From: a virus
Lineage: Duplodnaviria > Heunggongvirae > Uroviricota > Caudoviricetes
Length of the DNA stretch: 64,000 nucleotides
Virus record (IMG/VR): IMGVR_UViG_3300050190_000017
Strand: one strand, 5' to 3'
Under the pieces are notes generated by a model. That model did no database searches. It was not told the origin of the DNA and saw nothing but the letters and a program-made list of their open reading frames with translations. Below, piece after piece: positions 24,208 through 47,250 of this stretch. Every line of letters begins with the position of its first letter. Position 1 is the first letter of the stretch. Both the position numbers and the translations under genes were made by a program.

Positions 24208-25515
24208 ATGAAGACATACGCAATGGTGGACAATATCAATATGGGAACAGACCTAGATGTTGATGATACGACCTTCGAGAGTAATGGTGTTGAATGCTCT
24301 GATAAGGAAAGTAAGAAGCTAATGGCTGTAATGGAAAAGAATGGAGGACTGCGCGATAAGGATGGGGGAATCATATTCATTATGAACCCAGGGAAGTTCA
24401 AGAAGCTAGGTTCAGCAATAACAGTAACACTACGACAGGATGGTCGTGCAGGATCCACATGGTTCTTCAATGTGTTAGCTAATCCAGCATCAGTGTTCAG
24501 TGGGGACAATACGTTCGGTAACTTGAAGCTACGGACACAGGTGCAGGATATATTCTACTTTGTACTAGAGTTCCTGGGTAAGAAGGGTGTAGACGTTACC
24601 CGGCTAACGCAGCAGGTAAAGATTGGGAATATCAACATTCATTCAGTAACGTTCGCGCAGTATAGTTCACCATTGAAGAATGAAAAGCTAATGAGAGAAT
24701 TGATTGATCGTTGGTATTTTATGTATGAGACGCGGCTGCACACCGGAGAACGTTACATATCACTGTTGCAAGAATTAGCTATGAAGCGTAGCGTAGGGGA
24801 TCAGTACGATGATTCAATAGCCTTGGCGATCTATGCTAAAGGCGATAAGTTAGGGAAGGGTAACAAGCTAATGCATCTGTGTCTTTATAATAAAGCACAG
24901 GAGAAGCGTGATAACGAGAAGGCAATGGGTAGTGAAGAGGAGCAGGACCTGGAGAAACGATTGCGGTTCGATCTTACTGTGAGTAACTACTATCTAAAGA
25001 ACTATTGGAGTTTAGGGGCCAAGCCTACTATCAAAGGTTTGTATGACTACGTGAAGCGGGAGTATCCTGAGCGTGGCTGGAAAGGTGCGGTGGAAGCGTT
25101 GATGACCTATGCTATAGAGCGTACGTGCTTATCCTACATGGTGACTGTAGACAATCCATTTGCTCTACAGCATCGAGGGATGATGAAGCTATGGGAAGAG
25201 GAGTACAAGACTAACGCAGGGAAGAAGAAGGTTGCGTGGGATCCTCGGTTAGTAACGTGGGCGGAATCATTGAACCTAAGTTTAGACATTTCACCTGACG
25301 CGCATCTGATTATGCTGCAGGGGCAGGCAGGGCTGTTGACCAATACGAAGGATCATACTAAGCGGTGGTTATCATCTGCGAAGGGGGCGGCGTTATACTT
25401 GGAAGAGCTATCAGGTATCTTGACTAAAACGCGGGAGTCGAAGAGATTAGCCCAGGCCGCTGCCACACTGAAGCTCGACTTCTCTAAACCTACTTACGTG
25501 GACCAAACGAAATGA
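24208..25515 (+). CDS. Rep_trans / gene II-X-like replication initiator homolog
   Basis: NPASVFSGDNTFG, LYNKAQE (cf. RepD IYNKKQE catalytic Tyr), LRFDLTV. Confidence 0.5.
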   Translation: MKTYAMVDNINMGTDLDVDDTTFESNGVECSDKESKKLMAVMEKNGGLRDKDGGIIFIMNPGKFKKLGSAITVTLRQDGRAGSTWFFNVLANPASVFSGDNTFGNLKLRTQVQDIFYFVLEFLGKKGVDVTRLTQQVKIGNINIHSVTFAQYSSPLKNEKLMRELIDRWYFMYETRLHTGERYISLLQELAMKRSVGDQYDDSIALAIYAKGDKLGKGNKLMHLCLYNKAQEKRDNEKAMGSEEEQDLEKRLRFDLTVSNYYLKNYWSLGAKPTIKGLYDYVKREYPERGWKGAVEALMTYAIERTCLSYMVTVDNPFALQHRGMMKLWEEEYKTNAGKKKVAWDPRLVTWAESLNLSLDISPDAHLIMLQGQAGLLTNTKDHTKRWLSSAKGAALYLEELSGILTKTRESKRLAQAAATLKLDFSKPTYVDQTK

Positions 25516-26468
25516 GAGCACTAGGGATAGCAGATCTGCATCTCGAACCTACCAACATGAAATCGCGCCTGTTCAGGATTTCTCACGTCTGTGACATTGC
25601 GAGAAAGAGGAGGATACAAAATATCTTTCAGTACGGGGACCTTGTAGAGGATGGTGACCTTACCGTTGTCCGCAAGCTACGAAAACTATTTGCCGAGTAC
25701 AATGACCTACGCTTCTGGATCATCGCTGGTAATCATGATCTCTTTAACAATCGGGAAGCATCCTCCTGTAGCCTAGATCTGCTCAGAGCTCATAACGTTA
25801 CCGTCTTCAGTTCTAGGGCCGAAGTGGTAGACATAGACGGAGCTCACGTAAACTTTAATCCGTGGCCTCATGCGCGACTAATGTTCGATGCTCTGAATGT
25901 AGTCCACGCTGCTGTCCCCGAAGTTGAAAAGAAGTTAGGCTTGGACTTTAAGGTAGGAATGAAGAAGAGTGATGCTGTTACTGTAGCTGGACACCTGCAC
26001 AGAGAATTACGATTTAGAAACACCTTCTACGCGGGCACACTGGCAAATAATTCTGATCCCGCTTTCCACTACATAAACTACAAGTCAGATGAGCTATGGA
26101 AGATCGAGAAATGTAATCTGCTCGGCTATTCTCAAGTAACCTCTGAGGGGCACCTGTCCCGGGTCATTAAGAAAGTTAAACCTGCCATCGTTACTGTAGA
26201 AAAAGTAGAGAGGGCCGCTAAGAAGAATAGCGGCTACCTTCACAAAATTTATAGCATGGATGACTTAGAGCAGGTCCCTATGACCGCAATTGCCTTACAG
26301 GTCGAGGCCCCATTTAAAGTTAAACCGTTTTCAGCACCTAATATAAAACGGATTCGAATACTAGCGGGACAGTCTAAAGAGCGACAGCAAGAACTTAGGG
26401 CGACCGCGGCGTCCTTGGCAGCCTTCTTAGAAATTGCTTACTGCCAACCAACTCTAACCAAGGAGTAA
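25512..26468 (+). CDS. Metallophosphoesterase, divergent SbcD/gp47-like paralog
   Basis: DLH, GD, GNHD, GHLH...FYAGTL; similar to 31949..32968. Confidence 0.75.
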   Translation: MRALGIADLHLEPTNMKSRLFRISHVCDIARKRRIQNIFQYGDLVEDGDLTVVRKLRKLFAEYNDLRFWIIAGNHDLFNNREASSCSLDLLRAHNVTVFSSRAEVVDIDGAHVNFNPWPHARLMFDALNVVHAAVPEVEKKLGLDFKVGMKKSDAVTVAGHLHRELRFRNTFYAGTLANNSDPAFHYINYKSDELWKIEKCNLLGYSQVTSEGHLSRVIKKVKPAIVTVEKVERAAKKNSGYLHKIYSMDDLEQVPMTAIALQVEAPFKVKPFSAPNIKRIRILAGQSKERQQELRATAASLAAFLEIAYCQPTLTKE

Positions 26469-31089: not shown

Positions 31090-31349
31090 ACTTGCCACAA
31101 TACCAGAGCCACAAGAAAGTACACGCCTTCAAAATCCTCGCTGTTAGCTATGAAGAAACACCGGATGGTATCTCACTCGTGTGTATAGTACCTACAGACC
31201 CAAACTTATCTCCTGTGTATATAGACTATGACTGGTACTATAAACACAGACCGCAAGCCGGTGGTTACTACGTTGTGTACGAAGACGGCTACACCTCCTA
31301 CAGTCCTGCCGAAGCTTTTGAGAACGGCTACACACTGATTGGTATTTGA
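31086..31349 (+). CDS. Small phage protein with GGYYVVYEDGY-SP-AFE domain
   Basis: PQAGGYYVVYEDGYTSYSPAEAFENGY. Confidence 0.75.
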   Translation: MNLPQYQSHKKVHAFKILAVSYEETPDGISLVCIVPTDPNLSPVYIDYDWYYKHRPQAGGYYVVYEDGYTSYSPAEAFENGYTLIGI

Positions 31350-31350
31350 T

Positions 31351-31535
31351 ATGGTTCACAATTGTAGATGGGTCCTCATACCTAACTCTCCTGGTGTAGT
31401 TGCCAAATACTGTGAGCACCTGTAGGATATACTTTACCTACTGACGACGATGGTAACAAGTATCGCAAGTACAACACGTTCTGCACAGAGCACAAAGCTA
31501 GATTTGAACTAGAGTTTGACGAGGAGGAATACTAA
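31351..31535 (+). pseudogene. Cys/His small protein split by a -1 frameshift (or sequence error)
   Basis: First frame ...AKYCEHL-TAG (31423); -1 frame from 31419 reads PVGYTLPTDDDGNKYRKYNTFCTEH...EEEY and ends in a TAATG overlap. Confidence 0.55.
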
Positions 31536-31750
31536 TGAGAGTTAATCGTAGTGTGCGTTGGAAAACCCTACTAGGCTCTGAGGACAATCAGAAGAAATTC
31601 ATATCTATGATTGAGGACAACTACCCAGACGCCAAAATTGATTTTACTCAGGACACTGCCGGTAGATATCTAGATGATTATGTAGAGGGTCTTTACCTAG
31701 GCTGGTGTCTTAATGAAGCTAAAGCATGGCCTAGTGGCGTATTGATATGA
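31535..31750 (+). CDS. Hypothetical protein
   Basis: 71 aa, GAGGA RBS. Confidence 0.65.
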   Translation: MRVNRSVRWKTLLGSEDNQKKFISMIEDNYPDAKIDFTQDTAGRYLDDYVEGLYLGWCLNEAKAWPSGVLI

Positions 31751-31938
31751 GCGTATTCAGTATTAGCTGTTTAGACGAGGACGGTGCTTCCACTCTGGAA
31801 CTCGATGTTGTTTCCTCCAGCTGGATACAGGCTTGCGATAACCTAGACCCTATCGTACTTCGTAGGCGCTATCACGTAGGAACTGAAAACTTCTCTAAGA
31901 AAGAAACTGTAGAGATTCGTATTAAGTTAAAGAAGTAG
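31747..31938 (+). CDS. Hypothetical protein
   Basis: 63 aa, coupled. Confidence 0.6.
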   Translation: MSVFSISCLDEDGASTLELDVVSSSWIQACDNLDPIVLRRRYHVGTENFSKKETVEIRIKLKK

Positions 31939-31948
31939 GAGAATTGCT

Positions 31949-32968
31949 GTGGCTGAATTTTTGGGCATCGGGGACCTGCACCTGTCGAGCGCAGACGGGT
32001 CGGGTGGACTATCGAAGTACGTGCAGGACTCCGATCAAATGGTAACGGAGGAGATGGAAAAGGTTTTACAATACGGGAGGAAGCATGGGATCAATACCAC
32101 TCTGCTGTACGGGGATATTTTTGATTCACCCAGGGGTTCGTATCAGGGGATGATGGCCCTCTCAAGATTCCTTGCATCAAACGATGACTTCACGTTCCAT
32201 ATCATCCTAGGGAACCATGACCTCTATGGAGAAACACCGGACACCGGGCATTCCCTAGAACTGTTGAAGCTCTTGTACTCTAAGTCTAACGTGAAGTTCT
32301 ACACTAAACCAAAGACGGTAGAGATCGACGGTGCTCCAGTTCGGTTCCTCCCGTACCCTCACGAATCCTTCGATAGTAAGGCTCTCAATGTCTACCATAA
32401 AGAAGTTCGCGGAAGTAAGAACGACGCGGGGCGTGTCATGGGATCAGATGATCTTACAGACTCCAAGTCCGTTATCGTCGCTGGACATTTGCATACCGCT
32501 CATAGAGTCCGTAACACGTATTACAGCGGAACACTATATCAACAAAACTTTGGAGAAAGCCTTCCAAAGTATTTCCATCACATAGAATTCAACGGGCCGA
32601 AGGATTACGAAATCCGGCTGGTCAAGCACGACCCCAAATACAAGCTGCACACTATCGTACTGAACACTCGAGATGACCTGGCAACTATTCCAGAGGGTGG
32701 GTTCAATCTAGTGAAGCTAGTCATCCAGGATGGGGCGGATGTATCGGCATCGGACTACGGTAAGTTTTCAAACATCGTAATGATTAAGCCATTCAAGTCG
32801 AAGGAGGACCTGCAGATGGTCCTCACCGAAGACTTAACCGAGGGACAGGCTGTGTCGTTCAAGACGGAAGACTTCTTTCGCACCTGGGTTTCCAGCCTAG
32901 ATGTAGACGAGGCTATGCGGAAGAAAATAAAATCTATTAGACGAAAGATTCTTAACACTGTAAGTTAG
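31949..32968 (+). CDS. Recombination exonuclease subunit (SbcD/Mre11/T4 gp47-like)
   Basis: GDLH, GDIFD, GNHD, GHLH, YSGTLYQQNFGE, C-terminal helical tail. Confidence 0.85.
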   Translation: MAEFLGIGDLHLSSADGSGGLSKYVQDSDQMVTEEMEKVLQYGRKHGINTTLLYGDIFDSPRGSYQGMMALSRFLASNDDFTFHIILGNHDLYGETPDTGHSLELLKLLYSKSNVKFYTKPKTVEIDGAPVRFLPYPHESFDSKALNVYHKEVRGSKNDAGRVMGSDDLTDSKSVIVAGHLHTAHRVRNTYYSGTLYQQNFGESLPKYFHHIEFNGPKDYEIRLVKHDPKYKLHTIVLNTRDDLATIPEGGFNLVKLVIQDGADVSASDYGKFSNIVMIKPFKSKEDLQMVLTEDLTEGQAVSFKTEDFFRTWVSSLDVDEAMRKKIKSIRRKILNTVS

Positions 32969-32978
32969 GAGCTCCCTC

Positions 32979-33650
32979 ATGCGTTTTAAGAAACTACCTC
33001 GCCTGAAGTTTCTCAAAGAGTGCTTTGACTACGATCCAGAGACGGGAAACTTAGTGTGGAGAGTTCGCCCTTATAGTCATTTCCCTTCGAGTGGTAATGC
33101 GGATGGCTGGAATTCCCGCTTCTCCGGTAAAGTGTTATCCAGTACTACCTCAGGAGGCCGCCCGATTGTTCAGCTTAACCACTCTAACTTCTACATACAC
33201 CGAATCATCTGGAAGTTGGTTACTGGTAAAGACCCTGGGAAATTTGAAGTGGATCACGCCGACACAGATAACACTAACAACAGCTGGAAGAATCTCAGAC
33301 TAGCAACTAACGCACAGAATCAAGCCAACTCCTCTCTAGCATCAAATAACAAATCTGGAATTAAAGGTGTTAGCTGGGCTGCTAGGAAGAACAAGTGGTT
33401 CGCTCAGATTAGGTCTAACGGTGTTCTGTACTACCTAGGATACTTCGACGATCTTCATGAAGCGGCTGCTGTCGTTGAAGCTAAACGAAAAGTTCTACAC
33501 AAGGAATTTGCTAATGACGGAACTAAGGTAGTTCAGCCTAAGCAGGTTGACTTCCCGTTCAAAGAGTGGTTGAAGTCCTTGGACGTCGATGAAGAGTTGA
33601 GAAAACGTATTCGCTATCAACGTCGAAAAATACTTAATGGAGTATCGTGA
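32979..33650 (+). CDS. HNH homing endonuclease with AP2-like domain and SbcD-derived tail
   Basis: HRIIW, EVDHADTDNTNNSWKNLRLATNAQN, SGIKGVSW...KWFAQI...YLGYF. Confidence 0.9.
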   Translation: MRFKKLPRLKFLKECFDYDPETGNLVWRVRPYSHFPSSGNADGWNSRFSGKVLSSTTSGGRPIVQLNHSNFYIHRIIWKLVTGKDPGKFEVDHADTDNTNNSWKNLRLATNAQNQANSSLASNNKSGIKGVSWAARKNKWFAQIRSNGVLYYLGYFDDLHEAAAVVEAKRKVLHKEFANDGTKVVQPKQVDFPFKEWLKSLDVDEELRKRIRYQRRKILNGVS

Positions 33651-33898
33651 TGACTGCCTACTGCATTATCATCCACAAACAGTTATCGGTAGCAGAGTGC
33701 CCACTGGAGACTTCTCAGTGTATGTGGAAGCACCGCGTCAACGGCCTCTGTAAATATAGTGAGGTATTCGCAAACTCAGACTTTACCCCAGTTGAGTTCG
33801 CAGCCTTAGTAGGTCTACCACCAATTGATTCTGCTGTTGTAAATATCTTACGCAATAGTTTAGCATTCAAGATCAAACACGAGCTACAAGACTCGTGA
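33647..33898 (+). CDS. Cys-rich hypothetical protein
   Basis: 83 aa, four Cys. Confidence 0.7.
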   Translation: MMTAYCIIIHKQLSVAECPLETSQCMWKHRVNGLCKYSEVFANSDFTPVEFAALVGLPPIDSAVVNILRNSLAFKIKHELQDS

Positions 33899-33971
33899 TC
33901 CCGTGAACCAACGAGTTCACAAAGACCATCCCGGTCAACCACCCTTCCCAGGACTATAATGGAAAATCAAA

Positions 33972-34691
33972 ATGAAGACGCTTACCGTTGCACAATTGGA
34001 AACTCTCGGCCCCCTGGGTTCTGTTTGGGTTCGTAACACTGGCGCAGAGTCCCTCCTGGAAATCAACGGAGACATCTTGTTGTCCATCCCAGGTAACGTT
34101 GGTCAACAAGGACAAGCTCTCAAGGTTCCCTCGACTTGGTTGCCTGTTGACTTGACCACCAACTTCCCGAAGCATCGTATCCTCGAATCAACAGATTTTC
34201 GGGCAGCAGTGCGTAATGGTTTGTTGACTATCATCGACGAACCTACCGCACAAAAGATTCTCCGTGAAGATGGTGCCAAGGAAGAACGTCAACGTTTGTT
34301 CGCCATCACGCAGCACATCAAGGAAGCAGGTGCTCCTCGTACTATCGCTGATTCCAACGTGTCGATTACTCGCACTGATGGTTTCAAAGAAGACGAAGAG
34401 AACCCAGTTTCGGTGATCGGACCCAATCAGGAAATCACACTGGCTTCGGCAGCTAAGGCAGGATTGGAAACTGACGAGAACGGCCTCACCGCTTCTTTCG
34501 TTATGTTTGCCGACAAGGTTGCAACGGAAGCGGATATTAAGGCATTGAATGCTTTGCGTACCCGTGCCCGTTTCAATCGCCGTGAGCTGAAGTATCTGCG
34601 TGACAACCTGAAGAACCATCCGAAGACTGTAGCAGCAGTCAAGACCAAGCTGAGTGCTATGTCTAAGGCTTCCAAGTCGGCTGCAGTGTAG
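33972..34691 (+). CDS. Hypothetical protein
   Basis: 239 aa; two upstream TGTAAATA motifs (33749, 33838). Confidence 0.85.
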   Translation: MKTLTVAQLETLGPLGSVWVRNTGAESLLEINGDILLSIPGNVGQQGQALKVPSTWLPVDLTTNFPKHRILESTDFRAAVRNGLLTIIDEPTAQKILREDGAKEERQRLFAITQHIKEAGAPRTIADSNVSITRTDGFKEDEENPVSVIGPNQEITLASAAKAGLETDENGLTASFVMFADKVATEADIKALNALRTRARFNRRELKYLRDNLKNHPKTVAAVKTKLSAMSKASKSAAV

Positions 34692-34725
34692 GACGGATTT
34701 CACCTCCTCCGTTAAGTGAAGTAGA

Positions 34726-45727: not shown

Positions 45728-45910
45728 TCAACCTACGTTCGTAGGATTCGCGTTCTGGTAGCCCGTCTGCACCGCTCCGTAGTTGCCGGTGATGACAGTC
45801 TGGTTAGTTGCTTTTGACGCCTGCAGACGCATAGCACTAAGCAGGCTCATGTTACGTAGTTGAAACAACAGCTGGTCCTGACGAGCTGCAAACAGTGGTG
45901 CGCTTAACAT
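45728..45910 (-). CDS. 60-aa protein sharing the C-terminal tail of 45993..47045
   Basis: GGAGG RBS; ATNQTVITGNYGAVQTGYQNANPTNVG. Confidence 0.75.
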   Translation of the reverse strand: MLSAPLFAARQDQLLFQLRNMSLLSAMRLQASKATNQTVITGNYGAVQTGYQNANPTNVG

Positions 45911-45992: not shown

Positions 45993-47045
45993 CTAGGCGA
46001 CGTTCGTGGGATTGGCATTCTGGGGACCAGTCTGCACAGCACCACTGTTACCAGAAATCACATTCTGGTTCGTAGCATGAGCGATCTGGGTAAGACCGGA
46101 CAAGCTAGCTGCAATTTGCGAAAGGATAGCAAACTGCTGTTGTTGCTGTTGTTGCTGTTGAGCCTGAGCAGAAGCTTGCGACACGTTCTGGCTAACAGTA
46201 ACTTCCGTGCCACGATGTGCTTCACGCATGTTGCGATCACCGCGCAGTTCGATAATCTCATTCTGAGCAGTCGTGAGCAACCGTTGCAGGTTAGCTTCGT
46301 ACTGAGCAACAATGAGGGAACGAGTCTTATCGCCGTCATCACGGATTTGATCCGTAAGAACAGACGTTTGTTGAGCAGTCTGAAGACCCAGGTTAGCAAT
46401 ACCCAACTGGGTTGCGGCACTATAGTTTGCAGCTTGCAACGAAGCACTAGAGAAACCGTTTGCTGCTTCCGAGCGACCCAGGTGAATGTTATCGTTAATA
46501 TCCTTGCGGGCTTCAACTACACCTGCCGTAATCGCGGCTTGCCCTGCGAGTTGGGAAAGCACACCTGCATGGATGTTATCGTTGATGTTGTGGCGTGCGT
46601 CTGCAACGTTGTTGGTCAGCAGGGCCGTGGAAGCAGCAACTTGCAACTGCCCTTGCGAAGCTTGGTTAGCTGCCGCCAGTTGACCTTGTGAAGCTTGATT
46701 GCCCAAAGCGATCTGAGCACCGGCGATAGCCGCTTGAACGCGACCCTCGTTCTCAGGGATCAGCTGCTGGATGGTAGCCAAGCTTTGCAGAATGTTGTTG
46801 GTATTCTGGCTCTGGGTTTGTTGATTCAATGCCGATTGAAGATGAGCAGTAGTCACAGTATCCCCAGCAGTAGCAGCCAAACCATTACGGCCACCAAAGC
46901 CACCACCCAGGCCACCGCCAAACAGAAGAGCACCGATAAGCAAGGAGCCAATACCATCCCCGCCCATCAAGCCACCGTTGTTGCCATAACCACTACCCAT
47001 GAGACCGCCAGTGCTCAGTACCGTGGGATTAACAAGATCAGCCAT
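45993..47045 (-). CDS. 350-aa Gly/Gln/Ala/Asn-rich protein
   Basis: ATG 47045 with GAGGA RBS; Gly-rich hydrophobic N-terminus, NQASQGQL x2, INDNIH x2, DGDKTRSLI, poly-Q. Confidence 0.85.
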   Translation of the reverse strand: MADLVNPTVLSTGGLMGSGYGNNGGLMGGDGIGSLLIGALLFGGGLGGGFGGRNGLAATAGDTVTTAHLQSALNQQTQSQNTNNILQSLATIQQLIPENEGRVQAAIAGAQIALGNQASQGQLAAANQASQGQLQVAASTALLTNNVADARHNINDNIHAGVLSQLAGQAAITAGVVEARKDINDNIHLGRSEAANGFSSASLQAANYSAATQLGIANLGLQTAQQTSVLTDQIRDDGDKTRSLIVAQYEANLQRLLTTAQNEIIELRGDRNMREAHRGTEVTVSQNVSQASAQAQQQQQQQQQFAILSQIAASLSGLTQIAHATNQNVISGNSGAVQTGPQNANPTNVA

Positions 47046-47250
47046 TTTGAGTTCCTCTTTAACTAGTTTAGGAGAGATCAATACAGCTATCAATCCGGCT
47101 AGTCCCGAGGCTAAGATACGTAACAGAGCCTTGTTCTATAATTCTATGGCTATCTGTCAGTCTAAAGATAAATCCTGTGTTTTGGATTTGTGTAAAATTG
47201 TGGAATGTGTGAATTCCTCTTACACATTAAAAATGCGATATGCGAATTCC

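Follow-up and report, generated by a model that had tools for sequence, protein, structure and literature searches.

A probable homing-endonuclease cassette with a replacement gene end in the SbcD gene of a phiRSL1-like jumbo phage

Introduction

Why should an HNH homing endonuclease of a phage end in the same peptide as the SbcD/gp47-like protein that is encoded immediately upstream of it? The two open reading frames lie next to each other in a 64,000-nucleotide stretch of phage DNA, hereafter the window, which originates from an IMG/VR phage record that is 218,861 bp long and has direct terminal repeats. The reading that we favour, with a probability of about 85%, is that a 682-bp HNH homing-endonuclease cassette in the 3′ end of the SbcD gene brought a replacement tail with it and displaced the native tail onto the endonuclease. 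Most of the argument turns on contigs from close relatives in which the same SbcD gene is found without the endonuclease.

The SbcD gene and its genome

The upstream ORF (31949-32968, plus strand, 339 aa) matches the Metallophos profile (E 1e-6) and, over residues 3-336, the 'SbcD-like' family PHROG 100. The protein is 56% identical to its counterpart in Ralstonia phage phiRSL1 and 54% identical to that in Burkholderia phage BcepSauron, which are the nearest named phages; both are jumbo phages, and the carrier is a phiRSL1-like jumbo phage. Across 90 homologues, residues D9, H11, D56, N89, H90, H180 and H182 show little or no variation. A sequence search against the PDB returned spurious ankyrin matches together with E. 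coli SbcD at an E value of about 0.7-0.9. The AF2 model (pLDDT 95.3) was compared with the PDB using Foldseek, and the top matches were the full-length Mre11/SbcD chains of the Mre11-Rad50 complexes 3QG5, 3THO and 6S6V (E values from 6e-16 to 1e-12). As predicted, the structure is an Mre11 fold, with a nuclease domain, a capping domain, a linker and a C-terminal helix-loop-helix at residues 306-337 (helices 306-316 and 321-337). As in the Mre11/SbcD proteins of T. maritima (3QG5/3THO), E. coli SbcCD (6S6V) and T4 (gp47), the peptide that is duplicated at this locus is the C-terminal helix-loop-helix, and it follows the capping domain and the linker of the Mre11 fold. Unlike in those systems, one copy of the helix-loop-helix is here joined to an unrelated endonuclease.

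The body of the resident SbcD/gp47 (Mre11-type) gene, codons 1-309 (31949..32875, plus strand), is supported by the profile matches, the model and the DNA of relatives. It shares 88-100% DNA identity with two HNH-less contigs, L010 and L011, up to base 32877. The gene is a fine-scale mosaic among these close relatives. A first block (31949-32170) has zero mismatches to L010 and another (32264-32488) has zero mismatches to L011, while 32534-32848 is 10-14% different from both, which exceeds the difference between L010 and L011 over the same bases. The last block is possibly a co-conversion tract from the previous host of the cassette. A second SbcD/Mre11-like metallophosphatase of 318 aa is encoded at 25512-26468 of the window (plus strand; PHROG 100, E 1.6e-10), and shares 33% identity with the protein encoded at 31949 over about 220 residues.

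Boundaries of the insert

The initial annotation had reported that the HNH and SbcD-like proteins share a C-terminal tail, and this is borne out. Both ORFs were confirmed, and BLASTP of the pair aligned SbcD residues 300-339 with HNH residues 183-223 at 23 of 41 identities (E 6e-10). The 3′ coding segment of SbcD is thereby present on both sides of the HNH ORF, as a divergent upstream copy and a native downstream copy. The upstream copy, tail A (32876..32968, plus strand), is a foreign replacement for SbcD codons 310-339 and the stop codon. It is in phase with the resident body, so that a full-length SbcD of 339 aa is still encoded. The downstream copy, tail B (33558..33650, plus strand), consists of the displaced native codons 310-339 and the native stop, and is read as residues 194-223 of the HNH protein.

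In blastn comparisons of L010 and L011 with the window, homology breaks at 32877 and resumes at 33549-33558. These breaks define a 682-bp insert (32876..33557, plus strand) made up of the replacement tail, a spacer and the HNH core, all of which is absent from the close relatives. The point of insertion in SbcD is codon 309/310, the junctions have a 2-base ambiguity, and the hexamer GACTTC stands just before each of them. The GC content of the insert is 45.2%, versus 48-49% for the flanks. The insert is 3n+1 bases long, and it is in the frame of the HNH ORF that the native tail is translated correctly; of the two other frames, one would close after 4 codons and the other after 10. The arrangement is not an artefact of assembly, since an independent Logan contig (L012) matches it at 100% identity over 6,283 bases.

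Presence or absence of the HNH gene is polymorphic at this one site in SbcD, with L010 and L011 both having no HNH and a single SbcD tail. Nor does an HNH gene follow SbcD in the more distant relatives that were compared, namely phiRSL1, BcepSauron, six IMG/VR contigs and L013. The gene that follows the insert is a conserved one of 82 aa (33650..33898, plus strand), the ATG of which overlaps the native stop (ATGA). In L010 the same 82-aa gene directly follows SbcD with the same overlap of stop and start, and its homologue in phiRSL1, ORF297, also lies directly after SbcD. More generally, the gap between SbcD and the small CPL...C gene (the phiRSL1 ORF297 family) is a variable hot spot which holds different cargo in each relative, as seen at L011:1907-2536 and at the equivalent places in L002, L004-L009 and L013. 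The cargo in L011 is a 209-aa gene that has no Pfam match and whose start overlaps the SbcD stop.

Origin of the two tails

A search of protein databases with the HNH sequence recovered two SbcD proteins, P0060 and P0061, through the tail alone. These proteins, encoded on L010 and L011 respectively, are 94% and 90% identical to the SbcD of the window, and end in tail B rather than tail A. Tail B matches the SbcD tails of L010 and L011 at 30 of 30 residues, and at 89/90 and 85/90 bases respectively. At the single mismatch to L010, L011 agrees with the window, and so zero changes in tail B are private to this phage. Because the SbcD of the HNH-less L010 and L011 ends in exactly tail B, the copy borne by the HNH protein is the ancestral one. 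This also settles, by comparison with HNH-minus relatives as the initial annotation had advised, which of the two tails came first. The accompanying proposal, that the endonuclease inserted near the 3′ end of SbcD and became fused in frame to the displaced tail, agrees with the insertion at codon 309/310 and with the matching tails of L010 and L011.

Tail A has a quite different history. Over the 30 codons past the junction, it shares 19 identical residues with tail B (11 of 30 differ from the native tail) and 48 of the 90 bases differ. Against all known tails, 41-48 of 90 bases differ, as compared with 0-14% in the flanks. Synonymous sites between tails A and B are saturated (pS about 1), with pN at 0.39. 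Each tail diverged as an SbcD tail in a separate phage lineage, and the divergence between them therefore pre-dates their union. Judged from these sequences, tail B is the displaced native tail and tail A is foreign, having arrived with the HNH gene.

This dating bears on two further claims made for the locus. The many synonymous differences between the tails had been taken to imply selection on the HNH-borne peptide, but they accumulated earlier, when both were SbcD tails in separate lineages. For the same reason dN/dS between the two tails was rejected as evidence of constraint, since it measures the divergence of two SbcD lineages and not that of the fused copy. The related suggestion that the peptide had been 'kept' by selection finds no footing in a fused tail with no private substitution, on which such a test is without power.

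Other comparisons delimit the provenance of the insert. Megablast of 31500-34700 against GenBank phages gave no match. The SbcD proteins of the IMG/VR relatives are at most 64% identical to that of the window, and the named phages, at 54-56% SbcD identity, are too distant to polarise the tails. No donor SbcD with tail A was found in a set of 5.8 billion proteins, in which P0060, P0061 and P0064 were the sole matches to the region; the absence of a donor bears on provenance and is not a class-defining feature of a cassette of the mORF type (see below). A donor that already held the duplication was also considered, by comparing the codons for HNH residues 184-192 with those for SbcD residues 301-309. 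These agree at 15 of 27 bases, or 9 of 21 once GACTTC is left out, which is not significant, and the idea was rejected.

The HNH endonuclease gene

The HNH ORF (32979-33650, plus strand) encodes 223 aa and matches HNH_3 (E 2e-15), PHROG 99 (E 1.5e-62) and AP2 (E 1.6e-4); the HNH_3 match is above the cut-off and the AP2 match below it. The HNH_3 and AP2 homing-endonuclease core occupies residues 1-193 (32979..33557, plus strand), a segment without a stop codon of its own. Homologues of the HNH protein terminate 2-17 residues past an EFA motif, at about the end of the cassette. The catalytic residues D92-H93, N105 and N117 are conserved, and the motif is therefore intact. The best PDB match of the HNH model is I-HmuI, with AP2 domains next. 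Upstream of the ORF, a spacer (32969..32978, plus strand) is associated with a GGAG ribosome-binding site which overlaps the SbcD stop and lies 7 bases before the HNH start. A scan of 31300-34100 for promoters and terminators found nothing above shuffled sequences.

This is the only HNH_3 gene of the genome. Diverged carriers of this HNH gene were sought by protein search; apart from the protein of the window itself, the best match was 44% identical. In common with T4 MobA-E and with I-HmuI (PDB 1U3E), the protein has an HNH nuclease domain and a C-terminal DNA-binding region. Like the T4 mob genes, it is patchy among close relatives and sits beside or inside a conserved gene of DNA metabolism (PMC2988022). 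The mob and seg genes of T4 differ in being intergenic, or in overlapping their neighbours by a few bases, without a replacement piece of the target gene. Moreover, the T4 review (PMC2988022) reports no duplication.

Proposed route of insertion

The favoured reading implies a cassette that would consist, in order, of foreign SbcD codons 310-339 with their stop, a ribosome-binding site and a stop-less HNH_3-AP2 ORF. The HNH enzyme would cut SbcD alleles that lack the HNH gene, either at the point of insertion or upstream of it. On this reading the target cannot lie wholly within the 93-base native tail, because this tail survives in the carrier and equals that of L011 where L010 differs. Double-strand-break repair would then copy the cassette into the cut allele. 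The recoded tail would allow the element to occupy a conserved, essential stretch without harm to the host gene, and would also remove homology that might otherwise allow excision of the cassette by looping out. Since the cassette is without a stop codon, its in-frame fusion to the native tail, expected in one frame out of three, is most likely a by-product; even so, the resulting protein may well bind SbcC.

A single carrier genome is known, from two identical assemblies. With this one carrier, and with neither a donor of tail A nor a close HNH relative in the databases, mobility of the cassette as a unit is inferred rather than observed.

The SbcC partner and the fused tail

The principal alternative assigns a use to the fusion. 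The native tail would have been retained on the HNH protein so as to dock on the phage SbcC, either coupling cleavage to end processing and homing or competing with SbcD. The initial annotation, which made this proposal, called for the SbcC/gp46 gene to be sought, and it has now been located at G000:C1:200560-202806 (L014:561-2807). It encodes 748 aa with a CxxC hook, matches SbcC_Walker_B, AAA_23 and the 'SbcC-like' PHROG 77, and is unlinked to SbcD, being about 95 kb away. A possible partner for a tethered endonuclease, an SbcC with a CxxC hook, is consequently encoded by the same genome.

Several structural points favour docking. In Mre11, the C-terminal helix-loop-helix attaches to Rad50 at the base of its coiled coil (bioRxiv 10.1101/2025.07.29.667502), and the best PDB matches of the SbcD model are, as noted above, full-length chains from Mre11-Rad50 complexes. 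All of the 90 homologues in the alignment have the helix-loop-helix; its hydrophobic positions are conserved, and tail A and tail B both retain them. In the HNH-less relatives, tail B itself forms the end of SbcD. The HNH model has a core at residues 1-177 and a linker of lower confidence, followed by a predicted helix (194-200), a loop and a second helix (205-221), the same helix-loop-helix as in the SbcD model. Set against this is Pro193, which takes about four residues off the first helix of the fused tail as compared with that of SbcD (306-316). As modelled, the fused tail is an essentially intact helix-loop-helix, for which docking on SbcC is plausible.

Complex prediction lends weak support. 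With SbcC 1-255, SbcC 510-748 and HNH 170-223 (the two halves of the SbcC head and the fused tail) the score was 0.52, versus 0.00 for the best of three controls; at least 59% of contacts agreed between runs and the partner pLDDT was at least 63. Of 80 solved complexes, 58 reached the mark used, as did 2 of 110 mismatched pairs; only 7 of those 80, but both of the mismatched pairs that passed, reached it with a score of 0.60 or less. Resemblance to solved Mre11-Rad50 complexes may account for the pass. A precedent for the involvement of such proteins comes from T4, in which homing uses phage exonucleases, 'possibly gp46, gp47' (PMC2988022).

Several observations count against a retained function. 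Tail B has zero private changes, and the insertion is hence too recent to reveal selection. An in-frame fusion has a prior chance of about one in three, and detection through protein-level repeats tends to over-notice the in-frame cases. In the same genome a GIY-YIG cassette has its own stop, and the tail that it displaced is out of frame (see below). A competitor for SbcC could, besides, equally harm the phage, and docking by the fused tail could as easily be neutral or harmful, through competition with the foreign-tailed SbcD, as useful. We therefore think it unlikely that the native tail was retained for docking. The same doubt attaches to the more specific idea that the fusion docks on the base of the SbcC coiled coil and exploits the captured helix to hand breaks to resection, to displace SbcD, or to tune resection and co-conversion. 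If true, this would be a natural tether between a nuclease and a repair complex, made by the insertion itself.

A second displaced gene end

Self-BLASTP of all ORFs of the genome revealed a second case of a displaced tail, at G000:C1:207485-210424 (L015:486-3425). Here the gene of a 514-aa ResIII/DEAD helicase precedes that of a 416-aa GIY-YIG endonuclease, after which comes a displaced helicase tail of 46 codons. This tail is 46% identical to the one in use, and lies 8 bases past the endonuclease's own stop in another frame. The displaced copy is closer to the tails of the nearest helicase relatives than is the in-use tail, and none of the closest helicase relatives has the endonuclease. Endonuclease genes thus repeatedly displace the ends of host genes as they settle in this phage, but need not become fused to them. 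The unfused GIY-YIG case fits the view that the HNH fusion is an accident of frame.

This second locus also bears on another explanation of the first, in which a free-standing HNH gene downstream of SbcD in a distant phage was joined to the resident gene by one-off illegitimate recombination through GACTTC microhomology, and the segment does not home as a unit. The 6-base match just before both junctions is what would be expected, a single carrier genome with no known donor agrees with it, and recombination is rife here given that SbcD is a mosaic among close relatives. Against this, the two junctions coincide at one codon of the duplicated unit, which a single insertion site would predict. 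Moreover, the same design recurs in this genome with a different family of endonuclease, and again in mitochondria, where the endonuclease has been shown to drive mobility (PMC3630166). Recombination of this kind seems to us less probable still than a retained docking function. In-place tandem duplication of the tail, with later divergence of the upstream copy and no foreign DNA, would account for two homologous and adjacent copies, but is most improbable since it needs 48 of 90 base changes upstream and none downstream between flanks that differ by 0-14%, and leaves aside an HNH gene absent from all relatives and an insert with GC below that of the flanks.

Comparison with known systems

The arrangement that remains best supported, a cassette with a replacement end, has a counterpart outside phages. 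Mobile endonuclease ORFs (mORFs) of fungal mitochondria create 'gene hybrids' (PMC3630166, citing Paquin et al. 1994), for example in atp6 of Allomyces macrogynus and in atp6, atp9, cox2 and nad3 of Glomus sp. (PMC3630166). As in the window, the endonuclease ORF lies in the 3′ part of the host gene, the element bears a divergent C-terminus in phase with that gene, and the native C-terminus, pushed to a downstream position, is nearly identical to that of the ORF-less sister genome (PMC3630166). The mitochondrial elements differ in that they encode LAGLIDADG or GIY-YIG enzymes in a mitochondrion, whereas an HNH_3-AP2 enzyme is found here in a jumbo phage. A further difference is that here a stop codon separates the host gene from the endonuclease, and it is the endonuclease that reads into the native tail.

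A phage system with some of the same features is mobE of Aeromonas phage Aeh1, an HNH gene inside an essential phage gene, nrdA, where insertion-derived sequences restore the function of the host gene by way of protein-protein contacts (PMC3045599). In that case, however, nrdA is split and the new tails reassemble the halves, whereas the SbcD gene is kept whole by a complete replacement end. A published phage example of the replacement-end design was not found in the searchable literature, the coverage of which is incomplete. The feature is a phage instance of a known mORF-type element, and what is special about it is the nature of the captured peptide.

In this light, a homing endonuclease of a phage is able to settle in the coding end of an essential gene if it supplies a recoded substitute for that end, and HNH-less sister phages serve here as direct controls. 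This adds a fourth strategy to introns, inteins and split genes. Since one genome holds two independent cases with different families of endonuclease, such insertions may be common among jumbo phages. The design can also mislead annotation, by giving rise to endonucleases that seem 'extended', to gene ends that are chimeric and to short orphan ORFs. The present case is unusual in that the displaced piece is a self-contained docking module for a repair complex that may help to process homing breaks. It thus offers a ready-made natural construct for asking whether tethering a homing endonuclease to Mre11-Rad50 alters homing.

Other repeats in the genome

Two more GIY-YIG paralogues are encoded in the genome (G000:C1, 163476-164582 and 171412-172473), and neither is accompanied by duplicated ends of neighbouring genes. 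A third C-terminal repeat was found in the window, between a 60-aa ORF (45728-45910, minus strand) and a 366-aa Gln-rich protein encoded just upstream (45993-47093, minus strand). The last 30 residues of the 60-aa ORF are 77% identical to the end of the larger protein. This pair was considered as an endonuclease cassette and rejected, there being no endonuclease between the two copies; it looks instead like a C-terminal module shared by paralogues of a fibre island.
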